Below are positions 3 through 26,249 of a DNA stretch of 64,000 bases, one piece after another. The translations under genes and the position numbers were made by a program. Below the pieces are notes generated by a model. That model saw only the letters and a program-made list of their open reading frames with translations, was not told where the DNA came from and ran no database searches. Where the stretch lies: the NCBI GenBank assembly GCA_943333125.1, contig CALQSB010000002.1, forward strand, positions 44,295 to 108,294. The letters are read 5' to 3'. Numbering within the stretch: position 1 is the first letter of the stretch; each line of letters opens with the position of its first letter. The DNA comes from Chitinophaga pinensis. GTDB lineage: Bacteria > Bacteroidota > Bacteroidia > Chitinophagales > Chitinophagaceae.

Positions 3-3000
3 GTAAGGTCTTGTTCAGATTTTCCGACAATTTCTGCAGCAGTTAGTTATTTAAATACTAACGGTATCGCAAACACATCAGGAAACTGGATATTTAAAGT
101 GGATTCAAATTATATAGAAACCCTCACTTCAACATTAGCATTGGGTAATTCAACATTGAATAGTGGTATTAATGGAGTAAGCGCAACAAAGCATATTGTT
201 TTCCAGAAAAATGGAGTTGGGAATAATCCAAAAGTTATTGCTTACCCAGGAACACAAGCTTCATTCAACGTAGCCATTCCGGATGGGATATGGAGCTTAC
301 GTGGCGTGGATTATGTAACTATTGATGGAATTGATTTGCAGGATAATATTGCATCAGGTAATGCAATGATGGAATATGGATATGGTTTATTTAAAACAGG
401 AGTTGCTGATGGAGCACAAAATGATACCATCAGAAATTGCGTCATCAGTTTAAATAGAAACAATGTTGCAACAGGTGCTACTATGAATTTTGACGGATCT
501 GTAGGTATCGCAGTTTTAAATACATTGGCAACAACAGCCAATACAGCTGTAGTGCCTAATGCTGTAAGTGGAGCCAATTCAAATAACAAGTTCTTTAAAA
601 ACACAATTCAGAATTGTAATATAGGAATTGGAATAAATGGATTTGGTGCTGCTTCTATTGCAGCTTTTGCAGATGGAGGAAACAGTATTGGAGACAGTCT
701 TTCTGCAACTTCAGGAAATCAGATGATCAATTTTGGAGGTGGCACAAGTGCTGCGGTTACTTCATATGGTATTTATATTAAAAATCAGATTGATGCCGTT
801 GTTGCTTACAATACAGTAAACAATCATGTTGATATTAATGGAGCAGATCATCCTGCTGCTCAAACAGGTATTGAAGCTACAGGTTTCGCCGCTACAACCG
901 GAATAGGCATAAAAGGAAATAATATTACCATTAATGGAGGAGGAGATAAAAACTATATTGGTATTAATAATACAACCGGTGGAGGTGGTACGGTTAACAT
1001 TACAGAAAATTTTGTTTCTGTAAAAATTCCTAACACAATAACCACAACTGCTGCAGGATCTGTAACGGGGATTAAAAATGCTAATAATTCAGCAGTTGCA
1101 ACGTTAAGTATTTCTGGGAATTCCTTTAAAAGAAGTACGATAAGTGGAGTGGGAAACTGGACAGCTATTTATAATACTGGTACATCTACTTCAGTAGGAA
1201 CAATAAATATGAACAGCAATATTATTGATTCTAACGAAATCAAATCTACGGGAGCTCTCATTGCTTTACAAAATGATGGTTCTCCTTATCTTACTTTGAA
1301 TATGAACGGAAATTCAGTTACTAGAAATTCTAAGGCAGTTTCTTCGGCATCAGCTCCGGATTATAGCTGGATTAAAAATAGTGCAACTTCTGCTAACATT
1401 AACATCCAAAATAATCTTATTGAAAAAGATACTGCGATAGTGCTTAGTACAAATGGTTCGACGTCAACGATAACAGGTGTCCGTATTTCTGGTGCTAATT
1501 TGAGTAATACGATAACCGTTTCCAATAACACAATCCGAAGTTTATCTATTCTTGGGATAAATTCAACTTTTGCTGCCAACATCAGAGGTTATTATAACCA
1601 ATTGAATGGGGTTGCTATGAATGAAAATATTATTAGCAATAAAATAAGTAATTTATATATTTCGCCTGCAATAGGATCTTCGGGTACTCATACTATAAAT
1701 GGTATTCAATCTGTAGGTCCACTAGTTGGTGGCACTCCTTGCATAAAGTATATAAATTTAAATGCTGTGGATACATTTTATGTGCGTAATAATGGAGAAG
1801 CACTTCCACAATATAATTCAACTTTTGCTGGAATATGCAATAGCAACAATGCTTCCAATGGAAGCAATCTATACATCTATAGGAATAAGATATCGCATCT
1901 TATTCCATTTGGAACAGGCGTCACAACCATTTCAAGAGGTATTTGGTTAGGCTCTTTGCAAGCTGCAGGTAATGCATATATTTATAATAATATGATTAAT
2001 CTGGATCTGTCTGAAGCATTTGACGGAGCATCTACAGGATCTTCTCTAACAGCAACTGATGCTATCAGAGGAATTGATATTTCTCAAACATCTACAAGCA
2101 ATGCATTACTGTATTTCAACACAATTAGAATTGCTGGTGCAGGAAATGCAACTTCTGGATTTGGCAGTAGTGCATTAAGTTTATCAAGTGCTTCTGGTAC
2201 ACCAAATGTTACCTTGAGGAATAATATCCTTGTAAACAAAGCAACAGCGGGTGCCACGGGATATGCTGTTGCATTAAGAAAATCTCTTGCAGGAATTGTT
2301 TACAACAATACTTCAAGTAATAACTTGTTTTATGTGGATACTACCGGAAGACGTTATATGTATTATGAATTGTCAACAGGATTTAATAGTTTGACCGGAG
2401 CATGGAATGCATCATCCAGAGAATTGGCATCAGTTACTACCGCAGAACCTTCATTTATTAAGGCTACTGATGGAACGGATTCGCTCCATTTGAACATAGT
2501 TACCAATTGTGCGATGAGTGGTACAGGTATTACAATTGCTATACCAAGCATCACAAATGACATTGATAATGATACCAGAAACAACCCTCCAGCTATGGGT
2601 GCTGATGAATTTACTTCAACTGGTCAGGGCATTGGTAATTGGTCTGGAGTAAATTCCAACTGGAATGATCCTATCAATTGGTGTGGATTAGTACCTAATT
2701 CTCTAACAGATGTTGTGATTCCAATAAGCAGAACAAATTATCCAATCATTAACGCAACTACAACACCAATTCCTTTATGTAGAAATATAACTGTTAATAA
2801 TGGAGGAACGGTGAATGTTTTGACTGGAGGAAAGATTTCTATTTATGGCAATACATCAACTCTTGCCGGTGGAATATTTAATACAAAACTAGGTACTGTT
2901 GAGTTTGATGGTTCTGTTGCTCAAACAGTTGGCGCTTCTACATTCCAGAACAATAATGTGAGAAATATTATCATTAATAATTCAAGCGCTACTGGTGTTA

Positions 3001-4934
3001 CATTAGGTGGGCCATTGAATTTATTAGGTAAACTTTCTTTTGCAGGCAGCAATCGTATTTTTGCAACTGCAGGAAATTTAACAATGAAATCATCAGATAC
3101 ATTAACTGCTAATCTTGGGGATATTACTAAAGATGCACTTAATGGAACGGTAGTAAGCGGCAATCAGGTTACAGGAGATGTAATGGTAGAGAGATTTGTT
3201 TCAGGCTGGAGAGCTTGGAGACTTTTATCGATGCCAACAACTCATAATTTACAAACGATAAAAGAAGCGTGGCAGGAAAATCAGGCAGCTAATTCGACTA
3301 CTCCAGCTGGATATGGCATTCAGATTACCAAGGATAGTGCAAATTGGAACACTACAGGTTTTGATTTGCAAACCACTCCTGGTCCTTCAGTTAAATATTT
3401 CGTAACAGCACCAAGTGATGGAGGAAATTGGAAAGGCATAACGTCTACAATTGATGTGCCTGGAGTGTCCAACGGAAAATTTGAAGCTGGAAAAGCGTAT
3501 ATGACTTTCTATAGAGGAGACAGAACAGTTAATACATATATTGCTTCTCAGGTAACAACAACGAGTATACTAAGAGAAAAAGGTCAATTGTTTACAGGCA
3601 ACTATCCTACTGTTTCGGTTCCGGCTCATCAGTTTATAGCTATCGGAAATCCTTATGCTTCTGCTATTGATTTTACGAAGTTTGATAATGTAAATATTGA
3701 TGGATTCATTTGGTTATGGGATCCTAAAATAAATAACCTTGGGGCATACCAGACAATTAACCCAACCAATGGACAAATGACTCCAGGTGGAGGTAGCTAT
3801 AGCCCAACACCATTGGATCCAACTACACACCCGGTTATCGAATCTGGCCAGGGCTTCTTTGTTCACAATGGAACTAGTTCAGCAGGACAAATAACTTTGA
3901 AAGAATCAAGTAAGGCTGATGGAAGTAATTTGGTTACCAGGAATTCAAGTGTTAGTCAACAATTAAGAACTAATTTCTATAAGCTGGTAAGCAACAACTA
4001 CAAAATTTATGATGGGGTATTAAATGTTTTTGATGAAAATAATTCAAATGAAGTGGATCGTAATGATGCTATTAAATTCACTTACTTAGGAGAAAATTTA
4101 AGCTTAGGCAGATCTGATAAATTACTTGCAATTGAAAACAGATCATCATTGCAGGAATCGGATACCCTATTCTATAAATTGGGTCAGGTTAAAGTATCAA
4201 CCTATCAAATTGAGTTTATTCCTGAAAACCTTGATCAAACAGGTCTCAGGGCTTATTTAGAGGATAGATATTTGAATACAAGCACTCCTGTAAGTTTAAC
4301 AGATACAACCAGAGTGGATTTTTCAATTTCAAGTGTATCGGGGTCTTATGATTCAGATCGATTTAGGATGGTGTTTAAAAAATTGGCGCCGGTACCAGTA
4401 ACTTTTGTTGATATTAAAGCAGAAAAGCAAAAAGATGCAGTGAAGGTTAGCTGGAAAGTGGAAAATGAAATCAATGTCAGAAATTACACTGTGGAAAGGT
4501 CTGCAAATGGAAGGAATTTTACAGAACTGGGTACTGTTCCTGCTACTGGATCTTCTTTGTATTCTTTGCTGGATAATAATCCATTAAATGGGGACAATTT
4601 CTATCGTGTTAAAAGTATAGGTGCTTCCGGAGAAATCAAGTACAGCAAAATCGTAAAAATTTCTTTCCAATTGGTTTCGTCAATAACAATATATCCTAAT
4701 CCAATTTTGAGCGATAAGGTGGCGCATGTTTCCTTCAGGAATTTACCACAAGGGGAATATTTTGTTAATGTAATGAATGAATTAGGGCAGATTGTATGGA
4801 GAAAAACAATCAGTCATACAGGTGGAATTGCTGAATATGCAATAATATTGGACAAAAATTTGGCACATGGAAATTATCAAATGGAAATATCAAATCAGGA
4901 AAGCCTAAAAACAATCCTTAAATTTCTATATTAA
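3..4934 (+). CDS. Large T9SS-secreted (type A CTD) Asn/Thr/Gly-rich parallel beta-helix surface protein, 5'-truncated by the window edge
   Basis: The frame is open from base 3 (VRSCSDFPTISAAVSYLNTNG...), so the GTG at 99 is probably not the true start. Beta-helix-like repeats (I-x-N-N-x-I), DIDNDTR...MGADEF motif, WSG..NWNDPINW segment, PVPVTFVDIKA...VSWKVENE...YTVERS domain and C-terminal IYPNP...G.Y...I CTD. Confidence 0.88.
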   Translation, partial: VRSCSDFPTISAAVSYLNTNGIANTSGNWIFKVDSNYIETLTSTLALGNSTLNSGINGVSATKHIVFQKNGVGNNPKVIAYPGTQASFNVAIPDGIWSLRGVDYVTIDGIDLQDNIASGNAMMEYGYGLFKTGVADGAQNDTIRNCVISLNRNNVATGATMNFDGSVGIAVLNTLATTANTAVVPNAVSGANSNNKFFKNTIQNCNIGIGINGFGAASIAAFADGGNSIGDSLSATSGNQMINFGGGTSAAVTSYGIYIKNQIDAVVAYNTVNNHVDINGADHPAAQTGIEATGFAATTGIGIKGNNITINGGGDKNYIGINNTTGGGGTVNITENFVSVKIPNTITTTAAGSVTGIKNANNSAVATLSISGNSFKRSTISGVGNWTAIYNTGTSTSVGTINMNSNIIDSNEIKSTGALIALQNDGSPYLTLNMNGNSVTRNSKAVSSASAPDYSWIKNSATSANINIQNNLIEKDTAIVLSTNGSTSTITGVRISGANLSNTITVSNNTIRSLSILGINSTFAANIRGYYNQLNGVAMNENIISNKISNLYISPAIGSSGTHTINGIQSVGPLVGGTPCIKYINLNAVDTFYVRNNGEALPQYNSTFAGICNSNNASNGSNLYIYRNKISHLIPFGTGVTTISRGIWLGSLQAAGNAYIYNNMINLDLSEAFDGASTGSSLTATDAIRGIDISQTSTSNALLYFNTIRIAGAGNATSGFGSSALSLSSASGTPNVTLRNNILVNKATAGATGYAVALRKSLAGIVYNNTSSNNLFYVDTTGRRYMYYELSTGFNSLTGAWNASSRELASVTTAEPSFIKATDGTDSLHLNIVTNCAMSGTGITIAIPSITNDIDNDTRNNPPAMGADEFTSTGQGIGNWSGVNSNWNDPINWCGLVPNSLTDVVIPISRTNYPIINATTTPIPLCRNITVNNGGTVNVLTGGKISIYGNTSTLAGGIFNTKLGTVEFDGSVAQTVGASTFQNNNVRNIIINNSSATGVTLGGPLNLLGKLSFAGSNRIFATAGNLTMKSSDTLTANLGDITKDALNGTVVSGNQVTGDVMVERFVSGWRAWRLLSMPTTHNLQTIKEAWQENQAANSTTPAGYGIQITKDSANWNTTGFDLQTTPGPSVKYFVTAPSDGGNWKGITSTIDVPGVSNGKFEAGKAYMTFYRGDRTVNTYIASQVTTTSILREKGQLFTGNYPTVSVPAHQFIAIGNPYASAIDFTKFDNVNIDGFIWLWDPKINNLGAYQTINPTNGQMTPGGGSYSPTPLDPTTHPVIESGQGFFVHNGTSSAGQITLKESSKADGSNLVTRNSSVSQQLRTNFYKLVSNNYKIYDGVLNVFDENNSNEVDRNDAIKFTYLGENLSLGRSDKLLAIENRSSLQESDTLFYKLGQVKVSTYQIEFIPENLDQTGLRAYLEDRYLNTSTPVSLTDTTRVDFSISSVSGSYDSDRFRMVFKKLAPVPVTFVDIKAEKQKDAVKVSWKVENEINVRNYTVERSANGRNFTELGTVPATGSSLYSLLDNNPLNGDNFYRVKSIGASGEIKYSKIVKISFQLVSSITIYPNPILSDKVAHVSFRNLPQGEYFVNVMNELGQIVWRKTISHTGGIAEYAIILDKNLAHGNYQMEISNQESLKTILKFLY

Positions 4935-4980
4935 TTGAAAAGAAGGTATTAATTTTACATCTACAGAAAAGATTGAAAAA

Positions 4981-5193
4981 ATGAGCAGACTAAGAAAAAC
5001 AATAATGTTGCTATCAATTACGGCGTTTATTGTATTTTTTTCACCAACTAAAACATTCTCTCAGGGACCTCCTGATCCTAACTGTGATCCATTGGATCCT
5101 CTTTGTCCTATAGATGGGGGGTTGACTCTTTTATTAGCAGTAGGAGTTGGGTTAGGTGCAAAAAAAGCCTTTAAAAAATCAGATAGCAACTGA
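4981..5193 (+). CDS. PID-CTERM protein-sorting domain protein (70 aa; putative exosortase substrate)
   Basis: N-terminal signal peptide (likely TFS|Q28), short Pro/Asp/Cys core, PIDGG motif, hydrophobic helix LTLLLAVGVGLGA and basic tail KKAFKK: the tripartite CTERM architecture. Confidence 0.85.
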   Translation: MSRLRKTIMLLSITAFIVFFSPTKTFSQGPPDPNCDPLDPLCPIDGGLTLLLAVGVGLGAKKAFKKSDSN

Positions 5194-5211: not shown

Positions 5212-5240
5212 AAAGATGCCTATTGGCATCTTTTTTATTT
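5212..5240 (+). terminator. Intrinsic terminator after the PID-CTERM gene
   Basis: AAAGATGCC-TATT-GGCATCTTT perfect stem-loop followed by TTTATTT. Confidence 0.85.
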
Positions 5241-5378
5241 TATCAAGTTTAAGCCCCTTTAAATTATTATTAAAATTGCTTAAGGCATTGATTTAAAGTT
5301 GGTCATCTAAGTTTTTTTAACGAATTTTGTTAGCCTGAATATATTGAAGAGTATAGTATTTGGGGCAATGATTTCGAT

Positions 5379-6194
5379 ATGCAAAAACTCAAAATTTCTT
5401 CTCAAATTGATTTATTAGCGCCTATAAAATGGGGGGTATTTTTAGTATTGTCTGTTTTGTTTTTTTCATGTTCCTATCCTAAGAGCTTTACCTATTTTAA
5501 GACTTTACCCAAGGATACCACTATTACCGCATTTGTTTCACCTGAATTTGAGTCAAAAATACAGAAGAAGGATGTTTTAGGAATTTCAGTGAGCAGTTTG
5601 AACTCGGAACTGGATGTCCAATTTAATAATTTACCCAAAATGAATGCTGATGCAATGAATAATAATCAGAATATTTTTGGCTTTAAGATTAACGATAACG
5701 GTCAAATTGATTTCCATTTTATTGGAAAAGTGAAAGTGGAAGGGATGACAAAGAAACAACTTAAAGAAAAGCTGGAAAGAGAGCTTATGCCTTTTATGAA
5801 AGAGCCTATTGTCTCAGTTCAGTATATGAATAAAAAAGTAACTGTAATTGGGGATGTAGCTACACCGAAAATTTTTTATTTGAGCGAAGAGCAGCTCCCC
5901 TTATTGGATGTTATTGTTAACTGCGGCGATCTTCAAGAGAGTGCTTTAGCAAGCGACATTTTAGTGATAAGAGATTCTTCCTCAATGAAGATTGTTAAGC
6001 ATATTAATCTGGAAGATCATTCTATTTTTTCTTCCCCATGGTATTACGTAAAAGCTGATGATATAATCTATGTGAAAAAAGATGTGATTAAATATGATAA
6101 AGATGAAAGAAGAAGCAGAACACAAATCACAGTTTCTTTAATTGCATCTGTAGTTTCACTATTAGTGGTATTGTTAAATACCCTTTTAAAATAA
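5379..6194 (+). CDS. wza: Polysaccharide export outer-membrane lipoprotein (Wza/OPX, Poly_export + SLBB)
   Basis: Lipobox-like FFSC; I.D.GQIDFHFIGKVKVEGMT and VTVIGDV motifs; directly upstream of wzc. Confidence 0.9.
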   Translation: MQKLKISSQIDLLAPIKWGVFLVLSVLFFSCSYPKSFTYFKTLPKDTTITAFVSPEFESKIQKKDVLGISVSSLNSELDVQFNNLPKMNADAMNNNQNIFGFKINDNGQIDFHFIGKVKVEGMTKKQLKEKLERELMPFMKEPIVSVQYMNKKVTVIGDVATPKIFYLSEEQLPLLDVIVNCGDLQESALASDILVIRDSSSMKIVKHINLEDHSIFSSPWYYVKADDIIYVKKDVIKYDKDERRSRTQITVSLIASVVSLLVVLLNTLLK

Positions 6195-6213: not shown

Positions 6214-8646
6214 ATGAACGAAGAACAAGTAGAACAGGAAAAGCCTAGTGATAATATTATAGCTCAAATCATTCATAGGTATTTGCCTTTCTGGCCTATA
6301 CTATTGATATGCTCGGCAGCTTCATTGTTAATTGCCTTTCTGGACCTTCGTTCTCAAACTAAAATATATGTTGCTGCTGCCAAGGTTCTCCTTAAAGATC
6401 CAGAGAAAGGCAATGGAGATACAAAGGTTCTGGATGCCTTAAATATATTTAGTGAAAAGAAGACTGTTGAAAATGAAATCATAGTATTAAGATCTTCCTC
6501 GATAATGCAAGAAGTGGTTAAAGAATTAGATTTATACTCCACTGTTAATAATGAAGGGAAGGTTCGTAAAGAAGAGCTATACGCAGACAATTCACCTTTG
6601 AAATTTATTGCACTCGATAAAGATAGTATTGAGTCAGGCGGCACACTTTTTTTTGAAATCGACTGGAAAAATGAGTTAGTTAAAATTGCCGGTCAGTTGA
6701 TTCCTTTCAATGGCACCTTGAAGTTAAATAATACTATCTATCTCTTACAAATAAATAAAACGTATAACAGGAATATTGTTGGTAAAAATTATTTTGTAAC
6801 CTTTAATTCGGTAGAGACGGCTGCAAGTTCAATAATTGGTACAATAAAAGCATCACCTCTTTCTTACAACTCAACAGTTATTGATGTAAAATTGGAAACT
6901 CCGGTTCCTAATAAAGGGGTGGACATTTTGAATAAATTATTTCAGGTGTATAATAATGCAGGGATCGATGATAAGAATCAAAGAGCAATTAAAACACTTA
7001 GGTTTATAGAGGGTAGGCTAAATGCCGTAATTTATCAGTTAGACAGTGTTGAGCGTAATATTCAAATTTATAAAACTAAAAATGATGTTTTAAATCTGGG
7101 AGATCAGGCGAAGGCTTATTTTGATAACATTAAAGAACTTGACAAAGCAAATAGCTTACTTGATTTACAACTTCAATTGTTGGACGATGTATTAAGTTAC
7201 ATTAATGCCAAGGGTAAAAAAACAGGAACAGTGCCATCATTGGTTTTGTTGAATGATGAAACATTAACAGGTTTATTAAACCAATTGTATGCATCAGAAT
7301 TTGAACTAGATAAAGTAAAATCTAATTCTGGATCAAAAAGTGATGCTGTTTTACTGGCGGTTAGTAAAGTGGAACGGATAAAAAATGACATCAGGGAAAG
7401 CATAAATAATATCAGAAATAATTTTCAAACACAAAAGAGAAGTAATGAGGTAAACATTGGAATGAGCAAAAGTCTCTATGCTTCTGTTCCAGAAAAAGAG
7501 CGTGGATTAATAGACATTAGCAGGCAACAAGGTATAAAAAATAATATTTATTCTTATCTATTACAAAAAAGAGAAGAAACGGCATTGTCTTCAGCCTCCA
7601 CCAGTGCCGATTTGCGGGTATTGGAAAAGGGATATTCATACGGACCTATAAGTCCAATAGAAAACAATTTCTACTTAGCAGGATTAGTAATTGGGTTGTT
7701 CGTTTTTTTATTGTATGTACAATTCTCAGAACATATCAATAACAGAGTAATGTTTCGTGGTGAAATAGAAAAGAAGTCATCGGTTCCTGTTATTGGCGAA
7801 ATTGTACAGGCCAAATTAAACGAAACCATAGCTATCTCAGAAGGAAAAAGGACCGTTATCGCAGAGCAATTCAGAGCACTTAGGACGAATCTTAGTTTCA
7901 TGGGCTTTGATGAAAAAAACAAAGTACTTTTAGTTACATCCAGTATTTCAGGAGAAGGGAAGAGTTTCGTTGCTGTAAATTTGGCCATTAGTCTTACCTT
8001 AAATGGGAAAAAGGTAGCCTTATTAGAAATGGATTTAAGAAAGCCCAAACTGAGTAAATTACTGGGAGTTAAAAAAGATCCTGGTATTTCTAGTTTTTTG
8101 GTGAACAAATCTACTTTGGATGAAATTATTAAGCCGACACAGTTTAATGAATTATTTTTGGTAACAGCAGGTCCCATTCCTCCCAACCCAACTGAACTCA
8201 TTGGGAAAATTGAATTTGAGGAAATGATTATTGAATTGAAAAGTAGATTTGATTATATAATTATTGATACCGCTCCGATTGGGCCTGTTGCTGATGCCCA
8301 ATTACTGGCCAAATTTGTTGACATTACCATTTTCATGGTTAGACACAATCACACCCCAACAGTATTTTTGAGAATGATTGATACTTTTTATAAAGAAAAG
8401 AAATTTAAGAACATGTGTATTGTTTTTAATGGAATAAAGCCAAGGGGGGTATCTATTTTTAATTATGGTTTTGGGGGTTATGGAAATGGCTACGGTTATG
8501 GCTACGGCTATGGTTATGGCTATGGTTATGGATATGCTTATGGCAAAACATATAGCAGTTACTATGTACAGGACTCAACTCAGCCCGGGTTTAAAAATCT
8601 ATGGAGTATAAAGGATTTAGTGTTGAATTTGTTCAAGAAAAAATAA
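6214..8646 (+). CDS. wzc: Polysaccharide co-polymerase / BY-kinase (Wzc, GumC family)
   Basis: Two TM helices flanking a coiled-coil periplasmic region; EQFRALRTNL, Walker A SSISGEGKS, DLRKP, Walker B IIIDTAP; C-terminal Tyr cluster. Confidence 0.95.
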   Translation: MNEEQVEQEKPSDNIIAQIIHRYLPFWPILLICSAASLLIAFLDLRSQTKIYVAAAKVLLKDPEKGNGDTKVLDALNIFSEKKTVENEIIVLRSSSIMQEVVKELDLYSTVNNEGKVRKEELYADNSPLKFIALDKDSIESGGTLFFEIDWKNELVKIAGQLIPFNGTLKLNNTIYLLQINKTYNRNIVGKNYFVTFNSVETAASSIIGTIKASPLSYNSTVIDVKLETPVPNKGVDILNKLFQVYNNAGIDDKNQRAIKTLRFIEGRLNAVIYQLDSVERNIQIYKTKNDVLNLGDQAKAYFDNIKELDKANSLLDLQLQLLDDVLSYINAKGKKTGTVPSLVLLNDETLTGLLNQLYASEFELDKVKSNSGSKSDAVLLAVSKVERIKNDIRESINNIRNNFQTQKRSNEVNIGMSKSLYASVPEKERGLIDISRQQGIKNNIYSYLLQKREETALSSASTSADLRVLEKGYSYGPISPIENNFYLAGLVIGLFVFLLYVQFSEHINNRVMFRGEIEKKSSVPVIGEIVQAKLNETIAISEGKRTVIAEQFRALRTNLSFMGFDEKNKVLLVTSSISGEGKSFVAVNLAISLTLNGKKVALLEMDLRKPKLSKLLGVKKDPGISSFLVNKSTLDEIIKPTQFNELFLVTAGPIPPNPTELIGKIEFEEMIIELKSRFDYIIIDTAPIGPVADAQLLAKFVDITIFMVRHNHTPTVFLRMIDTFYKEKKFKNMCIVFNGIKPRGVSIFNYGFGGYGNGYGYGYGYGYGYGYGYAYGKTYSSYYVQDSTQPGFKNLWSIKDLVLNLFKKK
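8488..8541 (+). repeat. Coding hexamer repeat (GGN-TAY)x8 plus GCTTAT, encoding the (GY)8-AY phosphotyrosine cluster of Wzc
   Basis: ggctac ggttat ggctac ggctat ggttat ggctat ggttat ggatat gcttat read directly. Confidence 0.9.
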
Positions 8647-8722: not shown

Positions 8723-9223
8723 ATGATAAAAGAAAGTACTTTTTGGTATGTTATTTATACCCGACCAAGATGGGAAAAAAAAATAGCCAAACTTTTAGAG
8801 GATAAAGGGATTGTTCATTATTGTCCTTTAAATAGAGTAGAAAAACAGTGGAGTGATCGAAAAAAAGTCGTTTTTGAGCCCTTGTTTAAAGGGTATATTT
8901 TCATTAAAATTGAAGAGACTCAAAAATGGGATATAAAAATGATTAATGGGATTATCAATTATTTATATTGGCTCGGAAAACCTGCGAAAGTTAAAGACGA
9001 GGAAATTGATAAGATAAAAATGTTTCTTCAGGAGTTTGATGATGTAGAAGTGATTGATAATAAGCTCGATGTAAACTCTACAGTGATTATTAATCAAGGT
9101 GTACTTATGAGTTATAGAGGAATCGTTGTTGACGTTTTGGGAAATAAAGCCAGAGTCCAAATTGACAGTATGGGAATAAGACTCAGTGCAATTTTTAAAA
9201 AAGCCAACTTGACACCTCTTTGA
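8723..9223 (+). CDS. upxY: UpxY-family (NusG/RfaH paralogue) transcription antiterminator
   Basis: WYVIYTRPRWEKK, QWSDRKKVVFEPLFKGYIF NGN domain plus KOW-like C-terminus; heads a polysaccharide operon. Confidence 0.93.
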   Translation: MIKESTFWYVIYTRPRWEKKIAKLLEDKGIVHYCPLNRVEKQWSDRKKVVFEPLFKGYIFIKIEETQKWDIKMINGIINYLYWLGKPAKVKDEEIDKIKMFLQEFDDVEVIDNKLDVNSTVIINQGVLMSYRGIVVDVLGNKARVQIDSMGIRLSAIFKKANLTPL

Positions 9224-9300
9224 TTTTTTAATATTATTGGCCAAAATACTTTTTTTATCTAAATAAAATTACTAATTTACTCTTCCAAAAAAAATCAAAA

Positions 9301-10278
9301 ATGAAGCTTACCGACAAAATTTATATAGCCGGTCATAATGGCTTAGTGGGAAGTGCCATCTTTAGATTACTAAAGAAAAAGGGTTACACTAATATTATTA
9401 CAAGGTCTTCTGCTCAATTGGATCTCAGGGATCAAAAAACAGTAAATGACTTTTTTGAAGCCGAACAACCCGCATATGTATTTATGGCGGCAGCAAAAGT
9501 TGGTGGAATTATGGCCAATCAAACCTATCCTGCTGATTTTATTTATGATAATATTTCGATTCAAAACAATGTCATTCATTCATCATATAAATGGGGAGTA
9601 GAAAAATTGCTTTTTTTGGGAAGTAGTTGTATCTATCCAAAAAATGCGCCTCAACCTATCATTGAAGATTATCTCATGACAGGTTGTTTGGAGCCAACAA
9701 ACGAACCTTATGCGATTGCTAAAATTGCAGGTATTAATATGTGCCAATCTTATATGAGACAATATGGGTGCAATTTTATAAGTGTAATGCCCCCCAATTT
9801 ATTTGGGCCTGGAGATAATTATGATTTACAAAACGCTCATGTTTTACCCGCATTGTTAAGAAAGTTTCACGAAGCTAAAGTTAATAATTATGAATCAGTA
9901 GTTGTTTGGGGTACAGGAAAGCCAAGAAGAGAATTTCTGCACGTTGATGATGCGGCAATGGCTTGTTATTTTTTGATGCAGAAATATGAAAGTCCTGAAA
10001 TTATTAATATTGGAACAGGCCTTGATTATTCTATAAAAGAAATGGCCAACATTGTTAATAAAATCACTGGCTTCAATGGTCAAATCGTTTTTGATGAAAC
10101 CAAGCCCGATGGTACACCTCGCAAATTATTAAATGTAGACAAAATAAATAAACTGGGTTGGCAGGCAACTATAGATTTTGAAGCTGGATTGCAATCTACA
10201 TATACCAATTTTGAAGAAAATTATTTAAGCTATATAAACCAGAAAGGGAACAAAATTCTCCAGTATCTAAATGTGTAG
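9301..10278 (+). CDS. fcl: GDP-L-fucose synthase
   Basis: IYIAGHNGLVGSA, AAAKVGGIMAN, LGSSCIYPK, YAIAK, WGTGKPRREFLHVDD, KPDGTPRKLL. Confidence 0.96.
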   Translation: MKLTDKIYIAGHNGLVGSAIFRLLKKKGYTNIITRSSAQLDLRDQKTVNDFFEAEQPAYVFMAAAKVGGIMANQTYPADFIYDNISIQNNVIHSSYKWGVEKLLFLGSSCIYPKNAPQPIIEDYLMTGCLEPTNEPYAIAKIAGINMCQSYMRQYGCNFISVMPPNLFGPGDNYDLQNAHVLPALLRKFHEAKVNNYESVVVWGTGKPRREFLHVDDAAMACYFLMQKYESPEIINIGTGLDYSIKEMANIVNKITGFNGQIVFDETKPDGTPRKLLNVDKINKLGWQATIDFEAGLQSTYTNFEENYLSYINQKGNKILQYLNV

Positions 10279-12064
10279 GATTTCTGGTATTGTAAATTTC
10301 GTTATTTCGGCTGAGCAGAAATTGCTAATGGTTGAAAAAATGTGCGAAATCCAAAGAAATGGGGGACCAGATGATGGCGGTGTTTTTATTTCCAAAGATT
10401 CAAATGTTGTTTTAGGTAATAGGAGATTAGCTCTTGTTGACTTATCAGATGGTGGTCACCAGCCTATGCATTATAAGGAAAGATATACGATTACTTATAA
10501 TGGTGAGTTATATAACTTTCTTTCCCTAAAAAATGAATTAAAATCCCTGGGTCATTTTTTTATAAATCATACAGATACAGAAGTTATTCTAGCTGCTTTT
10601 GATGAGTGGAACACTTCCTCTTTTTCCAGACTTGAGGGCATGTTCGCCTTTTCACTTTATGATAATCTAGATAATCAAGTTTATTTGGTTAGAGATCAGG
10701 CAGGAATTAAACCCCTTTATTATTCAACAAAAAATGATTCGCTGACTTTTGCATCCGAGGTTCGCGCTTTTAACGCAGTCAATTTTTCCTGGACTAACAA
10801 TGAATACTGGCCTATTTTTTTGATGGCTTACGGTCATATCCCTGAACCTTACACCCACAAGAAAGAAATCATTAGTTTACACAAAGGATCCTTTTTAAAA
10901 TATAATATCGACGAAAGAAAATATCATGTTGAATCTTATCATCACTATAGTTTCAACATTCATCATTCTGTTGAGAATGATTTAAAAACTCAGATAAGAA
11001 AATCCATTGAAAATTCAGTTCGTAAACATTTAATTGCAGATGCTCAGGTTGGTGTTTTTCTGAGTGGGGGTATAGATTCGAGTATTCTGGCTTTAGCAGC
11101 TTCTGAGGTGCAAAATGAAAAATTGAATTGTCTTTCTCTCTATTTTAAGGAGTCGGGCTTTTCCGAAAAAAAATATCAGGACCTTGTTCTGCAAAAAGTT
11201 TCTGGTTCAAATCATCAATTTCTTCTGACTAAAGACATATTCACCAATTCATTTCCGGATGTGTTAAGTGACATGGATTTGCCCAGTTGTGATGGAATTA
11301 ATACCTGGTTTATTAGCAAACAAGCAAAAGAGTTAGGATTAAAAGCAGTATTATCTGGCATTGGAGCGGATGAATTATTTGGAGGTTATCCTTCATTCAA
11401 AAGAATGGGTTGGGCAGAACGCATCAGAAATATACCTGATGTTTTTTTGAATTCTTTCAGTAAATCAAAACAAAAAAAACTAAACAGAATATCTTATCTC
11501 ACATTGGATGGAATAAATGGGTTGTATCTTTTTCTAAGAGGTCAATTTACCATTTCAGAAATAGCAAAATATTTAAATGCCGAAGAAAGTCAGATTCGGA
11601 ATATTCTCAACGAAATGCCCGCATTGGGCAATATTGAACTGAAAGATAACCGAAACGTGGCAAGCTGGATGGAATTCAATATGTACATGCAAAATCAATT
11701 ATTAAGGGATGCAGATGTAATGAGCATGTCACAAAGTATTGAAATCAGAGTGCCTTTTCTGGATCATCAATTGGTTCAGCTTGTTATGGGCATAGATGCT
11801 AATATTAAATACTCAGGACAGAGACCCAAACAACTTTTAATCGATGCTTTTATAGATAAACTGCCTGAGCCCGTTTGGAATCGGCCTAAGATGGGGTTCA
11901 GTTTTCCATTTTCAGAATGGATGAAGAACAACGGTTTTATTAGTGATATCATGATGCAGGGCAATGACAAAAGCCAGGAGTATTATAAACGGTTCAACAA
12001 TGGAAACCTTCATTGGTCTCAGATGATGTCTTTGGCAATAATGAGGTATCGGAATCATGAGTAA
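10271..12064 (+). CDS. asnB: AsnB-like glutamine amidotransferase (polysaccharide uronamide-forming type), copy 1
   Basis: N-terminal Cys2 (MCRISG), RGPDD-like GGPDD, NGELYN, DTEV, LSGGIDSS, SGIGADELFGGY, E.RVPFLD. Confidence 0.92.
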   Translation: MCRISGIVNFVISAEQKLLMVEKMCEIQRNGGPDDGGVFISKDSNVVLGNRRLALVDLSDGGHQPMHYKERYTITYNGELYNFLSLKNELKSLGHFFINHTDTEVILAAFDEWNTSSFSRLEGMFAFSLYDNLDNQVYLVRDQAGIKPLYYSTKNDSLTFASEVRAFNAVNFSWTNNEYWPIFLMAYGHIPEPYTHKKEIISLHKGSFLKYNIDERKYHVESYHHYSFNIHHSVENDLKTQIRKSIENSVRKHLIADAQVGVFLSGGIDSSILALAASEVQNEKLNCLSLYFKESGFSEKKYQDLVLQKVSGSNHQFLLTKDIFTNSFPDVLSDMDLPSCDGINTWFISKQAKELGLKAVLSGIGADELFGGYPSFKRMGWAERIRNIPDVFLNSFSKSKQKKLNRISYLTLDGINGLYLFLRGQFTISEIAKYLNAEESQIRNILNEMPALGNIELKDNRNVASWMEFNMYMQNQLLRDADVMSMSQSIEIRVPFLDHQLVQLVMGIDANIKYSGQRPKQLLIDAFIDKLPEPVWNRPKMGFSFPFSEWMKNNGFISDIMMQGNDKSQEYYKRFNNGNLHWSQMMSLAIMRYRNHE

Positions 12065-13169
12065 CAAAATACTTTTTCTAACCTTGAGGGTTTTTTCTGC
12101 AACTGGAGGAATTGAAAAAGTTTGCAGAATTTTAGGCAAGGCATTTTATGAAATGTCATTTTTGGGAAGTTCGTGTTTTGAAGTAATTTCCTCGCATGAT
12201 AAAACTAAGGATGGATTCAATAACAAATATTTTCCGGATGAAAGGTTTACTGGACATGGCAATAGTAGATTGGGTTTTGTAAAACAAGCTTTTAAAAAAG
12301 GAATTCATTCTGATACAGTTATTCTAAGTCATATTAATTTGTTGCCTGTTGGCTGGTTGATAAAAAAAGTGTCTCCAAAAACAAGATTGATCTTGATGGC
12401 TCATGGTATTGAAATATGGTCAATGCCTCTTGGAATAAAAAAGAAATTGCTGAATGCATGCGACGAAATATTATGCGTAAGTCAATATACAAAAGATCAA
12501 ATAGCCAGCTTTCCTGAATTGAAAAAAGTAAAATTAACGGTATTGAATAATTGCCTGGATCCATACTTGAGTATTCATTCAAAACAAAAATATGAAAATT
12601 CAATTCGTGCTAAACTTGGCATCTTAAATACAGATAAGGTTGCTTTTACATTAACGAGAATGGATGCCTCAGAAAGATACAAAGGATATGACAGAGTTAT
12701 AGAAGCTATTGCTGCAATTAGAGAAGAAGTTCCAGAACTTAAATATGTAATTGGAGGCAGCTACGATTCTATTGAAAAAGAATATATACTTACTTTAGCA
12801 GACAAACTAAAAGTGAGCGGCAATATAATTTTAACCGGATATATTCCTGATGAAGCTTTGGAAGATTATTTTCAAATGTCAGATTTTTATGTAATGCCAA
12901 GCTATAATGAAGGATTCGGAATTGTTTTCATTGAAGCTATGTACTATGGGCTTCCTGTAATAGCCGGAAATAAAGATGGATCTGTAGATGCATTGTTGAA
13001 TGGGAAATTGGGGACACTAATTGATCCAATGAATATAAATGACTTGAAGCATGCAATTTTAGCAATTGTGAAAAATAAAGAAAATTATAAACCGGATAAA
13101 AAAATATTGATAGATAATTTCGGTTATGAAAATTATACACACAATTTAAAATCAATATTTTTAAATTGA
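12057..13169 (+). CDS. GT4-family glycosyltransferase
   Basis: YKGYDRVI, YVMPSYNEGFGIVFIEAM..G.PVIAG (EX7E motif). Confidence 0.92.
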   Translation: MSNKILFLTLRVFSATGGIEKVCRILGKAFYEMSFLGSSCFEVISSHDKTKDGFNNKYFPDERFTGHGNSRLGFVKQAFKKGIHSDTVILSHINLLPVGWLIKKVSPKTRLILMAHGIEIWSMPLGIKKKLLNACDEILCVSQYTKDQIASFPELKKVKLTVLNNCLDPYLSIHSKQKYENSIRAKLGILNTDKVAFTLTRMDASERYKGYDRVIEAIAAIREEVPELKYVIGGSYDSIEKEYILTLADKLKVSGNIILTGYIPDEALEDYFQMSDFYVMPSYNEGFGIVFIEAMYYGLPVIAGNKDGSVDALLNGKLGTLIDPMNINDLKHAILAIVKNKENYKPDKKILIDNFGYENYTHNLKSIFLN

Positions 13170-13178
13170 TAATCACAA

Positions 13179-14033
13179 ATGAGTAATTTAAGTAGTCACG
13201 AAAATATCGAAACACAAAATTGGGATCTGGTCCTAAAGCCTGGCAGAGCTGAAAAAAACTATTGGAAAGATATCTGGCGTTATCGCGAGTTATTTTACAT
13301 ATTAAGCTGGAGGGATATAAAAGTAAGATACAAGCAAACGGTATTGGGTGCTGCTTGGAGTATCATCAGGCCTTTATTGACTACTGTAATATTTACGGTT
13401 GTGTTTAGTAAAATTGCCAAGCTGAATAATCCTGGCAATGCGCCATACGCATTGATGGTTTTTGCAGGAATGTTGCCTTGGCAGTTTTTTAGTAATGCAC
13501 TAAGTGAGTCAAGCAATAGTTTAATAGGTAATTCAAATCTGATTACAAAGGTTTATTTCCCTAGGATGATTATACCAGCAAGCTCGGTTATTACAAGCCT
13601 GGTTGATTTCGCTATTTCATTTTTGATATTAATAGCAATGATGTTCTGGTATCATTATGTTCCTTCATGGCATATTGTTTTTTTGCCAATATTCATTTTA
13701 ATTGCATTTTTTTGTGCTTTTGGTGTCGGATTATATCTTACTGCTGTTAATGTAAAATATCGTGATTTCAGATATATCATTCCTTTTATCATTCAGTTTG
13801 GATTGTATATAACACCGGTTGGATTCAGTAGTTCAATAATCAGTGAAAAATGGAAATTATTGTATTCAATAAATCCTATGGTTGGTGTTATAGACGGATT
13901 TAGGTGGTGCATATTAGGCGATCCAATGAAATTCAGTTCATTTTTAATTTCAATGGCCATTACTCTTTTATTCCTGCTATTGGGGATATTTTATTTCAGA
14001 AGAATGGAAAAAACATTTGCAGATAATATATAA
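13179..14033 (+). CDS. wzm: ABC-2 polysaccharide exporter permease (Wzm)
   Basis: RDIKVRYKQTVLGAAW, LITKVYFPR, NV.YRD, NPMVGVIDGFRW. Confidence 0.96.
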   Translation: MSNLSSHENIETQNWDLVLKPGRAEKNYWKDIWRYRELFYILSWRDIKVRYKQTVLGAAWSIIRPLLTTVIFTVVFSKIAKLNNPGNAPYALMVFAGMLPWQFFSNALSESSNSLIGNSNLITKVYFPRMIIPASSVITSLVDFAISFLILIAMMFWYHYVPSWHIVFLPIFILIAFFCAFGVGLYLTAVNVKYRDFRYIIPFIIQFGLYITPVGFSSSIISEKWKLLYSINPMVGVIDGFRWCILGDPMKFSSFLISMAITLLFLLLGIFYFRRMEKTFADNI

Positions 14034-14043
14034 ATAGTATTCT

Positions 14044-15288
14044 GTGTCAAAAATTATAGAAGTCAGAGGTCTTTCTAAATCCTACATAATAAATCATGAG
14101 GGCAAAGAACAGTATACGGCACTTAGAGATGTAATAGCTAGAAAAGCAAAAAAGATATTTTCTTTCCCAGGATGGAAACCTTCATCTTCAATTACAAAAG
14201 AAGAATTTTGGGCATTAAAGGATATTGATTTTGATATTGAACAAGGGGATCGTGTGGGTATTATCGGTCGTAATGGTGCTGGTAAAAGCACCTTGTTGAA
14301 AATATTGTCAAGAATTACCGATCCCACTACTGGGACCATCAGCATAAAAGGCAGAATTGCTTCATTGCTTGAAGTTGGAACAGGCTTTCACCCTGAACTA
14401 ACTGGGCGTGAAAATGTTTTTTTGAATGGAGCCATTTTAGGGATGAGTCGTTCAGAAATAAAAAAACAGTTTGATGCTATTGTTGATTTTGCGGAAGTAG
14501 AAAGATTTCTGGATACTCCGGTAAAAAGATACAGTAGTGGTATGTACGTTCGTTTAGCCTTTGCAGTTGCAGCACATTTGGAACCGGAGATATTAATTGT
14601 TGATGAGGTGCTTGCAGTTGGAGATGCTCAGTTTCAAAAGAAATGTTTAGGCAAGATGGAAGATGTGAGTAAGAACGAGGGGAGAACGGTATTATTTGTG
14701 AGTCATAATATCACTGCATTAAAATCTATTTGTACAAGTTGTATAATACTACAGAAAGGAGAAAAAAAGTTTCAGGGTAATGTAAATGAATCCCTTGAGA
14801 AATATCTTAATTTTGATAATGAATTATCTAGTGCAAGTAGGAAGTATATAAGAGAAGAAACGCCATCTAAAAACGTATTTTTAAAAGAAGCGGAATTGAT
14901 CGATGTCACTCATGAGGAATATTTTTTTATTAATCTGAGATTAAAAATTTATTCAAGCGATTCGACAAGGCTAAGTGTTAATCTCAGACTTAAAGATGAA
15001 CTAGGATTTCCTGCGGCATATGGGTGCTCTCATATTTTCAAGCCTGAATTACATTCTATGCAGCCAGGAGAGAACATAGTGCATCTTAAAACTGAAAAAT
15101 TAAATCTAGCGGTGGGGAAATTTAGATTAGGGATTGAAATGGTATTACCCGGCATTGAAAGTTTGGACTTTGTAGATGATTGTATTCAATTTGAAGTTTC
15201 AAATGATACTACTGCAACTTATAAATTTGGAGTGATGCAAAGCTGGGGATTCAGTGCAACAGAAATAAAATTTAAAGAAATAATTTAA
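14044..15288 (+). CDS. wzt: ABC exporter ATPase (Wzt) with C-terminal carbohydrate-binding-type extension
   Basis: GTG start; GRNGAGKST, GFHPELTGREN, YSSGMYVRLAF, DEVLAVGD; about 160-aa C-terminal Wzt_C-like region. Confidence 0.95.
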   Translation: MSKIIEVRGLSKSYIINHEGKEQYTALRDVIARKAKKIFSFPGWKPSSSITKEEFWALKDIDFDIEQGDRVGIIGRNGAGKSTLLKILSRITDPTTGTISIKGRIASLLEVGTGFHPELTGRENVFLNGAILGMSRSEIKKQFDAIVDFAEVERFLDTPVKRYSSGMYVRLAFAVAAHLEPEILIVDEVLAVGDAQFQKKCLGKMEDVSKNEGRTVLFVSHNITALKSICTSCIILQKGEKKFQGNVNESLEKYLNFDNELSSASRKYIREETPSKNVFLKEAELIDVTHEEYFFINLRLKIYSSDSTRLSVNLRLKDELGFPAAYGCSHIFKPELHSMQPGENIVHLKTEKLNLAVGKFRLGIEMVLPGIESLDFVDDCIQFEVSNDTTATYKFGVMQSWGFSATEIKFKEII

Positions 15289-15291
15289 ATA

Positions 15292-15891
15292 ATGAAGTTA
15301 TATTATAAAATAAAAAGAAAGATTTTTTCTTATTTCATTAAGAATAAAGAATCTGTTGAGTATAGTTTTAAAAGAAGTGAAATTGATAGAATCGCTTCAA
15401 TTTATGGGACTCAAATATTTGTTGAAACGGGAACATTTCTTGGAGATACCGTGGATTATTTTAAAGACAAATTTAAACAAGTGATTTCTATAGAACTTTC
15501 TGAGGAACTGGCATTAAAAGCAAAAAATAGATTTATTAATCAACCCAATGTTCGTATCATTTCAGGGGATAGTGGAACTTTGCTTAAAGAACTTATTAAT
15601 ACTTTCAATACACCAGCAATCTTCTGGTTAGATGGTCATTATTCATCCGAATTTATGATAGGAGATGAATTTATTAGAACTGCAAAGGGGGAAACCAATA
15701 CGCCTGTTGAAAATGAATTAACAACTATTTTGAAAAGCCAGGGCAATCATATTGTTATGATTGATGATGCCAGGTTGTTTACTGGTTTAGATGATTATCC
15801 ATCAATTGGTATGATAAAAAGATTAGTGAGAAAGCATGGTAATGGATATCAAGTAAAAGTTGAAAATGACATCATTTATATTTTAAAATAA
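15292..15891 (+). CDS. Putative SAM-dependent methyltransferase (ETGT...FWLDGH family), copy 1
   Basis: FVETGTFLGDT, ISIELS, GDS, FWLDGHYS, IDDAR; Rossmann methyltransferase-like. Confidence 0.7.
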   Translation: MKLYYKIKRKIFSYFIKNKESVEYSFKRSEIDRIASIYGTQIFVETGTFLGDTVDYFKDKFKQVISIELSEELALKAKNRFINQPNVRIISGDSGTLLKELINTFNTPAIFWLDGHYSSEFMIGDEFIRTAKGETNTPVENELTTILKSQGNHIVMIDDARLFTGLDDYPSIGMIKRLVRKHGNGYQVKVENDIIYILK

Positions 15892-15904
15892 TTGTCCCAA
15901 ACTG

Positions 15905-16624
15905 ATGAATTTACTAAAAAAGGTTTTTCTTAAACTCAATTCCGAATTTCGCTTTCTAACACAGCAGAAATGGGGGTTAATAAAACCTGACGACAGATTT
16001 GTAATAAGTAAATCAGTATTGAAAAAAATATTGCCAGCTGATCCTATTATTATTGATTGTGGAGCTCATGTAGGCGCAGATTCGGTTGAATTGGCAAGAG
16101 TATTTCCGAAAGGAAGAATACATTCTTTTGAACCCGTTCCTGATATTTACAAATCTTTATTTTCAAACACTAAAAAATTCGGTAATATTTCAACATATCC
16201 TGTTGCTCTGGGAACCATCAATGGAGATTCAGAAATGTTTGTAAGCAGTGGAAGTTCTGATGCAAGCAGTTCGCTTCTTGAGCCAACAGGCCATAAAGAT
16301 TCTCATCCTGATGTTTACTTTAATGATAAAATTACAGTTGAAGTTAAAACACTAAAAGAATGGACTTCTATTTATAAAATAGATCACATTGATTTTATGT
16401 GGTTGGATATGCAGGGATTTGAATTACAAATGTTGAAAGCTTCTGAAGAAATACTTGCAAAAGTTAAATGTATTCATACCGAAGTAAGCTTAAAAGAAAC
16501 CTATCATAATGCTGTTCATTATTCAGAGTATAGAAAATGGCTTGAGCAAAAAGGGTTTAGAGTGTTAATTGAAGCATGGCCCTTAGGCGCCGATATGGGC
16601 AATGTGCTTTTTGTAAGAAAATAG
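15905..16624 (+). CDS. FkbM-family methyltransferase
   Basis: IIDCGAHVG, HSFEP, IDFMWLDMQGFELQML. Confidence 0.9.
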   Translation: MNLLKKVFLKLNSEFRFLTQQKWGLIKPDDRFVISKSVLKKILPADPIIIDCGAHVGADSVELARVFPKGRIHSFEPVPDIYKSLFSNTKKFGNISTYPVALGTINGDSEMFVSSGSSDASSSLLEPTGHKDSHPDVYFNDKITVEVKTLKEWTSIYKIDHIDFMWLDMQGFELQMLKASEEILAKVKCIHTEVSLKETYHNAVHYSEYRKWLEQKGFRVLIEAWPLGADMGNVLFVRK

Positions 16625-16625
16625 T

Positions 16626-17573: not shown

Positions 17574-17619
17574 CTATCAATTTTAATTGATAAGAATTTG
17601 CATTTCAAAAAAACACAAA

Positions 17620-18219: not shown

Positions 18220-18232
18220 AAATTAGTTTATT

Positions 18233-19012: not shown

Positions 19013-19101
19013 ATTAAATTATGTCTATTGCAATGGTTCTATCCTAAATGTAATTTAAAGGCAATACCCATTAGCAAAACTTTGCTAACTAATATAAGCG
19101 A

Positions 19102-20001: not shown

Positions 20002-20004
20002 TAA

Positions 20005-21156: not shown

Positions 21157-21179
21157 TAAAATTTCATTCTAAAAATCAA

Positions 21180-22725: not shown

Positions 22726-22729
22726 CAAC

Positions 22730-24463: not shown

Positions 24464-24573
24464 TAGGATGAACTTTTTACACAGATATCAGCTTGGGCTT
24501 TACATCCTTTTTTTAATTTGATATTTGTAAATTAACTTTTTTTAGATCTGAAATAAAACATTAAAACTTTAAA

Positions 24574-25317: not shown

Positions 25318-25330
25318 TCAGAATTATTAA

Positions 25331-26182: not shown

Positions 26183-26249
26183 ATTGAATTAATAGATTTC
26201 GAAGTCTGCTCACGTTTTACTTTCTAACATAATAGGGTTTAAAAATGGA

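Follow-up and report, generated by a model that had tools for sequence, protein, structure and literature searches.

A 64,000-nt stretch of a Chitinophaga pinensis genome (GenBank assembly GCA_943333125.1, contig CALQSB010000002.1, positions 44,295 to 108,294 of the forward strand; hereafter the window) was analysed with respect to a 70-codon open reading frame (ORF) at positions 4981..5193 (+), which was confirmed to be a real gene for an export signal, a 15-residue Pro/Asp/Cys peptide and a membrane sorting tail (Table 1). This mini-gene is a typical member of the PID-CTERM family, in its Cys-pair subtype, and not a new kind of element; it adds a member to a family that is curated in databases and experimentally untouched. 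We hold with moderate confidence that the encoded mini-precursor is the single dedicated substrate of an XrtY-like mini-exosortase specified 32 kb downstream, and that it ends as a processed, anchored peptide. This explanation builds on observations of the gene, its family, its conservation, a rule of Cys pairing, and the linkage and co-occurrence of gene and enzyme.

To begin with, the window was translated, giving a protein of 70 amino acids (aa) whose ATG at 4981 is the sole start codon within the open frame and whose TGA stop lies at 5191-5193. From the N-terminus the mini-precursor reads MSRLRKTIMLLSITAFIVFFSPTKTFS, QGPPDPNCDPLDPLC, PIDGG, LTLLLAVGVGLGA and KKAFKKSDSN. The putative signal peptidase site TFS/Q28 obeys the -3/-1 rule, has Gln at +1 and aligns with the A-x-A/Q sites of homologues, and a tripartite C-terminus is present, with PIDGG at residues 43-47, the helix LTLLLAVGVGLGA at 48-60 and KKAFKK at 61-66, the protein ending at residue 70. 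Between them lies the core Q28-C42, comprising 15 residues with five Pro, three Asp and two Cys (C35 and C42, six residues between them); Ser and Thr were not found in it, nor was the O-glycosylation sequon D-[ST]-[AILVMT]. A first-pass annotation, made from the sequence alone, had given these positions for Q28, C35, C42 and PIDGG and had described a precursor leaving only ~15 residues; the numbering proved exact on re-translation, and the short core was both counted here and recovered family-wide.

The 70-aa protein matched the PID_CTERM model NF046080 over residues 43-62 with 33.9 bits (E 1.9e-8), and with 34.5 bits when the genome was scanned, the curated cut-off being 26 bits. In a six-frame scan of the whole genome, the mini-gene was the sole NF046080 match above this cut-off. 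A Pfam-A copy without PF28310 gave no match to the protein, and both an identical database protein (P0001) and the database homologues carried precomputed assignments to PF28310 (PID_CTERM). Moreover, the PID_CTERM model matched in 20 of 41 related genomes and, within a sample of 401 genomes from across the phylum, in 84, and the open frames holding the matches listed for the two samples spanned 31-168 codons, with no passenger domain anywhere in the family. A total of 55 precursors were extracted from these genomes, taking the core from the predicted signal-peptide cut up to PIDGG. The cores had a median length of 13 residues (interquartile range 11-16), were composed of 30% Pro, 13% Gly, 12% Asp and 11% Gln, and started with Gln in 49 cases. 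Furthermore, when 1.84 billion representative proteins were searched with a profile, 1755 clusters were found, of which the 150 best were taken and 120 could be parsed; in these 120, the median core length was 14 (interquartile range 13-17, range 8-45) and 101 cores began with Gln. The O-glycosylation sequon, whose absence the first-pass annotation had pointed out, occurred in none of the 55 genomic cores and in four of the 120 database cores. The features of the tiny core are not peculiar to this ORF but characterise the curated PID-CTERM family throughout. If the proposal of that annotation were wrong, homologues were expected to have random cores and no Cys conservation; instead, their cores were short and alike in composition, and the Cys pair was conserved in a large subfamily.

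In the genus, two subtypes were found, namely C-D-P-x-D-P-x-C-PIDGG...GLGAKKAY, to which the mini-gene belongs, and the Cys-free DPGGxPDx-PIDGG...YGxKKYRD. The motif C-D-P-x-D-P-x-C was invariant among close homologues. Across the 120 database homologues, 58 cores had no Cys, one had a single Cys, 54 had two, five had four and two had six, that is, an even count in 61 of the 62 Cys-bearing cores (binomial p 3e-17). In addition, the second Cys abutted the Pro of PIDGG (position -1) in 49 of the 54 two-Cys cores, where the spacing of the pair ranged from 3 to 14 and was most frequently 6 (25 cases). Pairing of the Cys, and hence a predicted disulphide, is well supported by these counts. The Cys loop proposed beforehand thus stood as regards the behaviour of the residues as a pair with the last one at -1 of PIDGG, but the disulphide loop is only a subfamily trait. 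As a defining trait, a loop of fixed size was ruled out by the variable spacing, the constant trait being the position of the last Cys.

Some members departed from the common layout. Rare long cores appeared in L045 (genome G122) and L055 (G293), one with ~74 residues of Asp/Gly repeats and one with ~56 mixed residues; therefore, a few members exceed the minimal peptide. In ~17% of the best database homologues, PIDGG was replaced by PIDSG, PIDNG, PIDDG or PFDGG, and the variant-motif homologues P0024, P0033, P0060, P0063 and others retained the Cys at -1 and its upstream partner. In family f45, from another class of the phylum (loci L026-L055), up to 20 PID-CTERM mini-genes occurred per exosortase, often just 3' of genes for type IX secretion system (T9SS) cargo and some of them spaced ~2.6 kb, with cores nearly identical between genera (QPGLPSAPSQA). 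One candidate homologue from the representative search, P0030 (2071 aa), was dropped for being a repetitive, unrelated sequence.

Coding evidence was obtained from a codon alignment of eight complete genes of the same subtype and genus. The proportion of non-synonymous differences (pN) amounted to 0.15 for the core and to 0.13 for the part comprising PIDGG and the transmembrane (TM) helix, as against 0.51 for the signal peptide and 0.45 for the tail, with synonymous sites (pS) saturated at 0.70-0.86. Thus, the 15-residue core is kept as tightly as the sorting signal, and the signal peptide evolves freely, which is usual for signal peptides. Such codon-level purifying selection on the core and the tail domain supports a coding gene.

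As to the exposed N-terminal Gln, the Q-rule of Bacteroidetes states that cleavage by signal peptidase I uncovers a Gln and that a glutaminyl cyclase of the inner membrane then turns it into pyroglutamate (PMC5837995, PMC10653852). The window itself carries a gene for a glutaminyl cyclase, and Gln28, which the first-pass annotation had rightly singled out, could probably become pyroglutamate through this enzyme.

The predicted processing enzyme is the 187-aa product of a gene at the far end of a polysaccharide locus. It scored 33.8 bits against the exosortase/archaeosortase signature TIGR04178 (cut-off 23), and its gene was the only one of its kind in the genome. Against the XrtX model NF046081 it reached 58.3 bits (cut-off 170) and against the XrtF model 29 bits (cut-off 90). 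Filing the enzyme as XrtY, XrtX or XrtF was rejected, all three scores being below cut-off, and it was kept as an exosortase-family protein, XrtY-like. An alignment of 21 homologues, which comprised XrtY-like proteins, XrtY above cut-off, XrtX and one type from another class, showed C97, N135 and R138 to be invariant and a His to be kept at 158/159; Cys97, Arg138 and His158 are intact in the window enzyme. In its AlphaFold2 model (pLDDT 90.6), oriented by the positive-inside rule, which we assume to apply here, four TM helices would place Cys97, Arg138 and His158 near the periplasmic face, where PIDGG would sit. Given the conserved Cys/Arg/His and the confident model, the mini-exosortase is predicted to be active. 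A fold search of the model against the PDB returned nothing at E<=0.001, and there is therefore no solved relative to supply a mechanism.

The association of substrate and enzyme genes was strong in both genome samples. Among the 41 relatives, 19 had both a PID-CTERM gene and a mini-exosortase, one had PID-CTERM only, five the exosortase only and 16 neither (Fisher p 3e-6). For the 401 phylum genomes the corresponding numbers were 82, 2, 34 and 283 (Fisher p 8e-55), so that a mini-exosortase was present in 82 of the 84 PID-positive genomes, and the genome studied here has exactly one gene of each. Moreover, two loci (L007 and L005) showed compact cassettes in which PID-CTERM is followed by XrtX (190 and 167 bits) and this by the XrtX-associated membrane protein, and by genome coordinates PID-CTERM also adjoined an exosortase gene in G122, G146, G194 and G293. 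In G000, G007, G017, G305 and G385, a single contig carries both genes at a distance of 24-42 kb, the arrangement in the genus being one with PID-CTERM and exosortase at opposite ends of the polysaccharide locus. As many as 20 PID genes were found alongside a single exosortase, which favours a role as substrates over one as subunits.

Several points weigh against this assignment. The separation of 32 kb in the window is a weaker linkage than that of the adjacent cassettes. The enzyme stays below the cut-off of the XrtY model NF046083 (114.6 bits, cut-off 160), as do all of its homologues in the genus, and no PID-CTERM match was found in five of the six phylum genomes whose enzyme passes that cut-off; therefore, this particular pairing of enzyme and signal is carried by co-occurrence only, and the window enzyme is named XrtY-like and not XrtY. 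The 34 phylum genomes with a mini-exosortase and no detectable PID-CTERM point in the same direction. About half of the family is Cys-free, which means that the loop is not essential to the mechanism. Finally, in the literature no paper naming PID-CTERM, XrtX or XrtY was found, nor any expression, proteomic or biochemical data, nor a report of the acceptor molecule of any bacterial exosortase.

The biochemical steps that follow are all inferred, and so are the site of cleavage and the acceptor. The mini-precursor would be exported by the Sec system and cut by signal peptidase I at TFS/Q28 (S27/Q28), after which Gln28 would probably be cyclised to pyroglutamate by the glutaminyl cyclase of the genome. 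A C35-C42 disulphide would lock the Pro/Asp loop CDPLDPLC directly against PIDGG, and the PIDGG-TM-KK tail would keep the peptide in the inner membrane and offer the motif to the exosortase. The enzyme would then cut at the motif, forming a thioester on Cys97, and move a peptide of ~15-18 residues to an amine of the envelope, with the head group of a lipid or a sugar from the locus polysaccharide as candidate acceptor. This last step is drawn by analogy with sortases and archaeosortase A, whose substrates are lipid-anchored and provide an experimental precedent for the transfer chemistry (PMC7157517), the general PEP-CTERM/exosortase proposal being a second precedent (PMC1569441). As the precursor has no passenger domain, the product would be the short capped, looped peptide itself, predicted as pGlu-GPPDPNCDPLDPLC ending in (P/PI/PID). 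The C-terminal transpeptidation suggested in the first-pass annotation is thus plausible, an intact exosortase-family enzyme being both linked and co-occurring, but the link to a glycan and the choice of acceptor were pure inference.

The gene directly upstream, which the first-pass annotation had left out of account for this finding, offers a further explanation, in which the mini-peptide is made together with a giant adhesin-like protein and, once processed by the exosortase, acts as the envelope anchor or acceptor of that protein, either as the nucleophile for the T9SS sortase PorU or as a non-covalent docking site. We regard it as tentative and rather doubtful, and it would refine the explanation given above rather than exclude it. 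In the genome, the open frame of the giant gene runs to 6078 codons and ends in a T9SS type-A sorting domain, which scored 26.9 bits against TIGR04183 with the last 90 aa and 25.9 bits in the genome scan (cut-off 23), a weak match that passed and that was missed on scanning the whole 743-aa piece. Its product is 38% identical over 1692 aa to a 2941-aa protein encoded upstream of the PID_CTERM gene of metagenome contig L056, where the order giant protein, PID gene and wza is preserved, and its 1643 residues visible in the window had no sequence match in Pfam or the PDB. The gap between the giant gene and the mini-gene is 46 nt long and hairpin-free, as would suit joint production. Overall, 35 of 54 PID-CTERM loci, including the window, had a same-strand gene ending <=250 nt upstream, and all 35 of these genes matched TIGR04183. 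The loci flanked by cargo genes span several families and classes, and with 72 TIGR04183 domains in the ~2.85 Mb of the genome studied here (~3% of genes) the pairing had a binomial p of 5e-40. Furthermore, in L032 the distance from the end of a T9SS cargo gene to the start of the mini-gene is 13 nt, and another large gene of similar kind starts just after the mini-gene, with two more PID genes located by genome coordinates ~2.6 kb to either side. A precedent for the chemistry is also available, since PorU joins T9SS cargo to the amine of a linking sugar (PMC7468200). On the other hand, no such neighbour was present at 19 of the 54 loci, among them the compact cassettes with XrtX (L005 and L007); the free amine would be lost if Gln28 is cyclised, and most cores are Lys-free. 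Moreover, the cargos of different classes are not demonstrably homologous beyond the sorting domain, a search for a shared passenger domain among them having given one pairwise match (E 0.002) that was not reproduced by a second BLAST, and adjacency alone is no proof of a physical link.

We know of no functional link between T9SS and exosortase systems. The strong pairing with T9SS cargo genes suggests a possible connection of the phylum's two systems of envelope sorting. An unlikely elaboration is a relay of two sortases, in which the exosortase would join the PID peptide to a lipid or glycan and PorU would ligate the giant adhesin onto that anchor. If this were true, each pair of T9SS cargo gene and PID mini-gene would supply a surface protein and its own anchor in matching amounts, the two Bacteroidota sorting systems, so far treated as separate, would be linked, and the first exosortase product would be defined.

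Very unlikely, in our view, is an unprocessed 43-residue single-pass protein of the inner membrane, serving the Wza/Wzc export machine, or the exosortase itself, as a small subunit or as a regulator. It would account for the position of the mini-gene directly upstream of wza-like and wzc-like genes in the window and in two metagenome contigs (L056 and L057), which preserve the order PID_CTERM, Poly_export, Wzc-like, NusG, AsnB and glycosyltransferase family 4 (GT4), and for the TM and KK part being the most conserved in the protein. However, the family tracks exosortase genes (82 of 84 genomes) and not wza/wzc, it occurs in up to 20 copies per enzyme, many loci have no polysaccharide genes alongside (e.g. 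L032), and tails built from motif, TM helix and basic cluster are what sortase-like systems cut off.

A released signal or antimicrobial of the type of ribosomally synthesised and post-translationally modified peptides (RiPPs), that is, a capped, cyclised and diffusible peptide, was judged highly improbable. The leader-core-follower layout, the short, conserved and disulphide-capable core and the gene's own terminator, as found for many precursor genes, would fit it. However, no RiPP maturase (radical SAM, YcaO, lanthionine synthetase, lasso cyclase, etc.) was found above cut-off in the ~40 ORFs at 5379-41140, nor a peptidase-ABC (ATP-binding cassette) exporter or an immunity gene; an AsnB paralogue among them scores as an ordinary asparagine synthase and falls under the lasso-cyclase cut-off, and the Pro/Gly/Asp low-complexity cores, near-identical across genera in one family, are unlike those of diversifying bioactive peptides. 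Of the 'RiPP-like capped, cyclised, anchored' peptide of the first-pass annotation, the capped, cyclised and anchored parts appear reasonable from the sequence, but the RiPP part found no maturase to rely on. Finally, an ORF present by chance in an inter-operon spacer, to which the shortness of the frame and the empty search of the Pfam-A copy without PF28310 might point, has a negligible probability and is already refuted by the profile match above cut-off, the 1755 homologous clusters, the purifying selection and the conserved synteny.

Exosortases were predicted in 2006 and are present in thousands of bacterial genomes. The closest known system is PID-CTERM/XrtX (NF046080, NF046081, NF046082; PF28310), which shares with the window the C-terminal signal, the phylum, the presumed Cys/Arg/His enzyme family and the same precursor build of signal peptide, ~13-residue core, PIDGG, TM helix and Lys cluster. 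In contrast, the partner in the window is XrtY-like, and the two genes lie 32 kb apart flanking a polysaccharide locus with no three-gene cassette; the XrtX-associated protein was not seen beside the enzyme, which is flanked by GT4 and carbamoyltransferase genes, NF046082 not having been searched genome-wide. The exosortase Y system (NF046083, NF046084, NF046085) provides the best enzyme model, and the window enzyme is likewise found inside a polysaccharide locus after a GT4 gene whose best model is XYAG1. However, the window falls below all three cut-offs (114.6 of 160 bits for the enzyme), as the XrtY-associated Wzy model NF046084 had no match in the genome at E<=1 and the GT4 gene at 35957..37075, which directly precedes the exosortase gene, reached 67.7 bits against the XYAG1 model NF046085 (cut-off 400). 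XrtY above cut-off (226-240 bits) was seen in five genomes of family f20 (G217, G297, G341, G421 and G437), none with a PID-CTERM match; XrtY proper may have another substrate signal there, or one too divergent for the PID_CTERM model.

The PEP-CTERM/XrtA (EpsH) system of Proteobacteria (PMC1569441) resembles the window in its motif-TM-basic signal, its exosortase, and its exopolysaccharide loci with AsnB-like amidotransferases and Wza/Wzc-type export. However, PEP-CTERM proteins usually carry passenger domains and number tens per genome, whereas the window has one passenger-free substrate with the motif PIDGG instead of PEP and an enzyme of ~190 aa instead of 280-500. Archaeosortase A with PGF-CTERM comes from a homologous family of enzymes that share the catalytic residues, and it is the only member with an experimental outcome, in which the tail is removed and the new C-terminus lipid-anchored (PMC7157517); it differs in being archaeal, in its large S-layer glycoprotein substrates and in its motif, and lipid transfer in bacteria is unproven. 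XrtF of Flavobacterium johnsoniae is, like the window enzyme, a Bacteroidota mini-exosortase and has a partner membrane protein, but the window enzyme scored well below the cut-off of the XrtF model (29 vs. 90 bits). Mutants in xrtF lose biofilm formation and surface colonisation, the XrtF substrates being still unknown (PMC10936215), and they are the only functional data for mini-exosortases of Bacteroidota. Anchoring of T9SS proteins to anionic lipopolysaccharide (A-LPS) through their C-terminal domain (CTD) and PorU (PMC7468200) is similar in being sortase-like and of the same phylum, and PID-CTERM genes have its cargo gene as their conserved neighbour upstream; in contrast, its signal is a folded domain of 70-100 aa, its enzyme is another one and its compartment is the outer membrane.

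The value of the mini-gene would lie in a simple handle on the acceptor question of exosortases and in the possible link to type IX secretion. An exported part of 15 residues that lacks a glycosylation sequon, has one predicted disulphide and is encoded once per genome makes a very simple probe. A C-terminal adduct on such a peptide would be readable by mass spectrometry, which makes the acceptor question testable. Moreover, the rules of the family (even Cys count, last Cys at -1, core conserved like the tail) narrow what the enzyme recognises.

Table 1. Features of the window around the mini-gene, the polysaccharide locus and the predicted processing enzymes
Feature	Position	Strand	Basis or remark
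3' part of giant surface-protein gene, T9SS type-A sorting domain at its end	3..4934	+	TIGR04183
Possible Bacteroidetes -7 promoter box TAATTTTA	4950..4957	+	In the 46-nt upstream gap; last base off consensus
Sec signal peptide, residues 1-27	4981..5061	+	n-region MSRLRK, h-region, c-region TFS; pN 0.51
Core peptide Q28-C42, QGPPDPNCDPLDPLC; C35 and C42 as predicted disulphide pair	5062..5106	+	pN 0.15 vs. saturated pS 0.86
PID-CTERM sorting domain, residues 43-62: PIDGG (5107-5121), TM helix LTLLLAVGVGLGA, first KK	5107..5166	+	NF046080; pN 0.13
Cytoplasmic basic tail AFKKSDSN and stop codon	5167..5193	+	Translation; homologues listed also have a Lys/Arg cluster after the TM helix
Intrinsic-terminator-like hairpin, 9 bp, loop 4, then T-run; 19 nt past the stop	5212..5241	+	-14.2 kcal/mol, z -4.0
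Wza-like polysaccharide export protein	5379..6194	+	First gene of the adjoining locus
Wzc-like tyrosine autokinase	6214..8646	+	TIGR01007, 158.5 bits, above cut-off
Polysaccharide biosynthesis cluster	8723..37075	+	Profile scans of ORFs
XrtY-like mini-exosortase, 187 aa	37087..37650	+	TIGR04178 above cut-off; predicted processing enzyme of the mini-precursor
Glutaminyl cyclase gene	62931..63740	-	PF05096/Glu_cyclase_2, 290 bits; match at G000:C2:107234-107932 = window 62940-63638

Candidate signals flanking the mini-gene were found on both sides. None of 200 shuffled sequences folded as stably as the hairpin after the stop codon, and relatives had a hairpin with a T-run at the equivalent site, with sequences differing from that of the window. 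Upstream, the possible promoter box was named on the basis of the consensus TAnnTTTG, which we take to be that of the -7 box; at the same alignment position, relatives had TATTTTTG or TAACTTTG in place of TAATTTTA. Transcription of the mini-gene from its own promoter near 4950 or by read-through from the upstream gene are both possible.

The polysaccharide cluster contained genes for UpxY, GDP-fucose synthase, two AsnB-like amidotransferases, GT2, GT4, GT10 and GT11 transferases and Wzm/Wzt, together with FkbM/TylF-type methyltransferases, acetyl- and acyltransferases, a Wzy-like protein and the XYAG1-like GT4. The exosortase gene was followed on its 3' side by genes for a carbamoyltransferase, a GT2 and a CpsB-like phosphatase, while contig L056, in addition to the large surface-protein gene upstream, had ABC transporter genes farther on. 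A role as lasso-peptide cyclase was considered for the AsnB paralogue at 22730..24463 (+) and rejected on scores, with 304 bits against the lasso-cyclase model (cut-off 525) and 432 bits against asparagine synthase (cut-off 267); its probable role is that of a sugar amidotransferase, in the manner of XrtA loci. Furthermore, a Wzm/Wzt ABC pair (13179..15288, +) and a Wzy-like polymerase (32630..34003, +) were found with Wza/Wzc in one cluster, and the locus would hold either parts of two export routes or the genes for two glycans. Finally, the C-terminus of the Wzc-like autokinase (8465..8646) consists of an unusually regular (Gly-Tyr)n tail, GYGNGYGYGYGYGYGYGYGYAYGKTYSSYY, replacing the usual irregular Tyr cluster.

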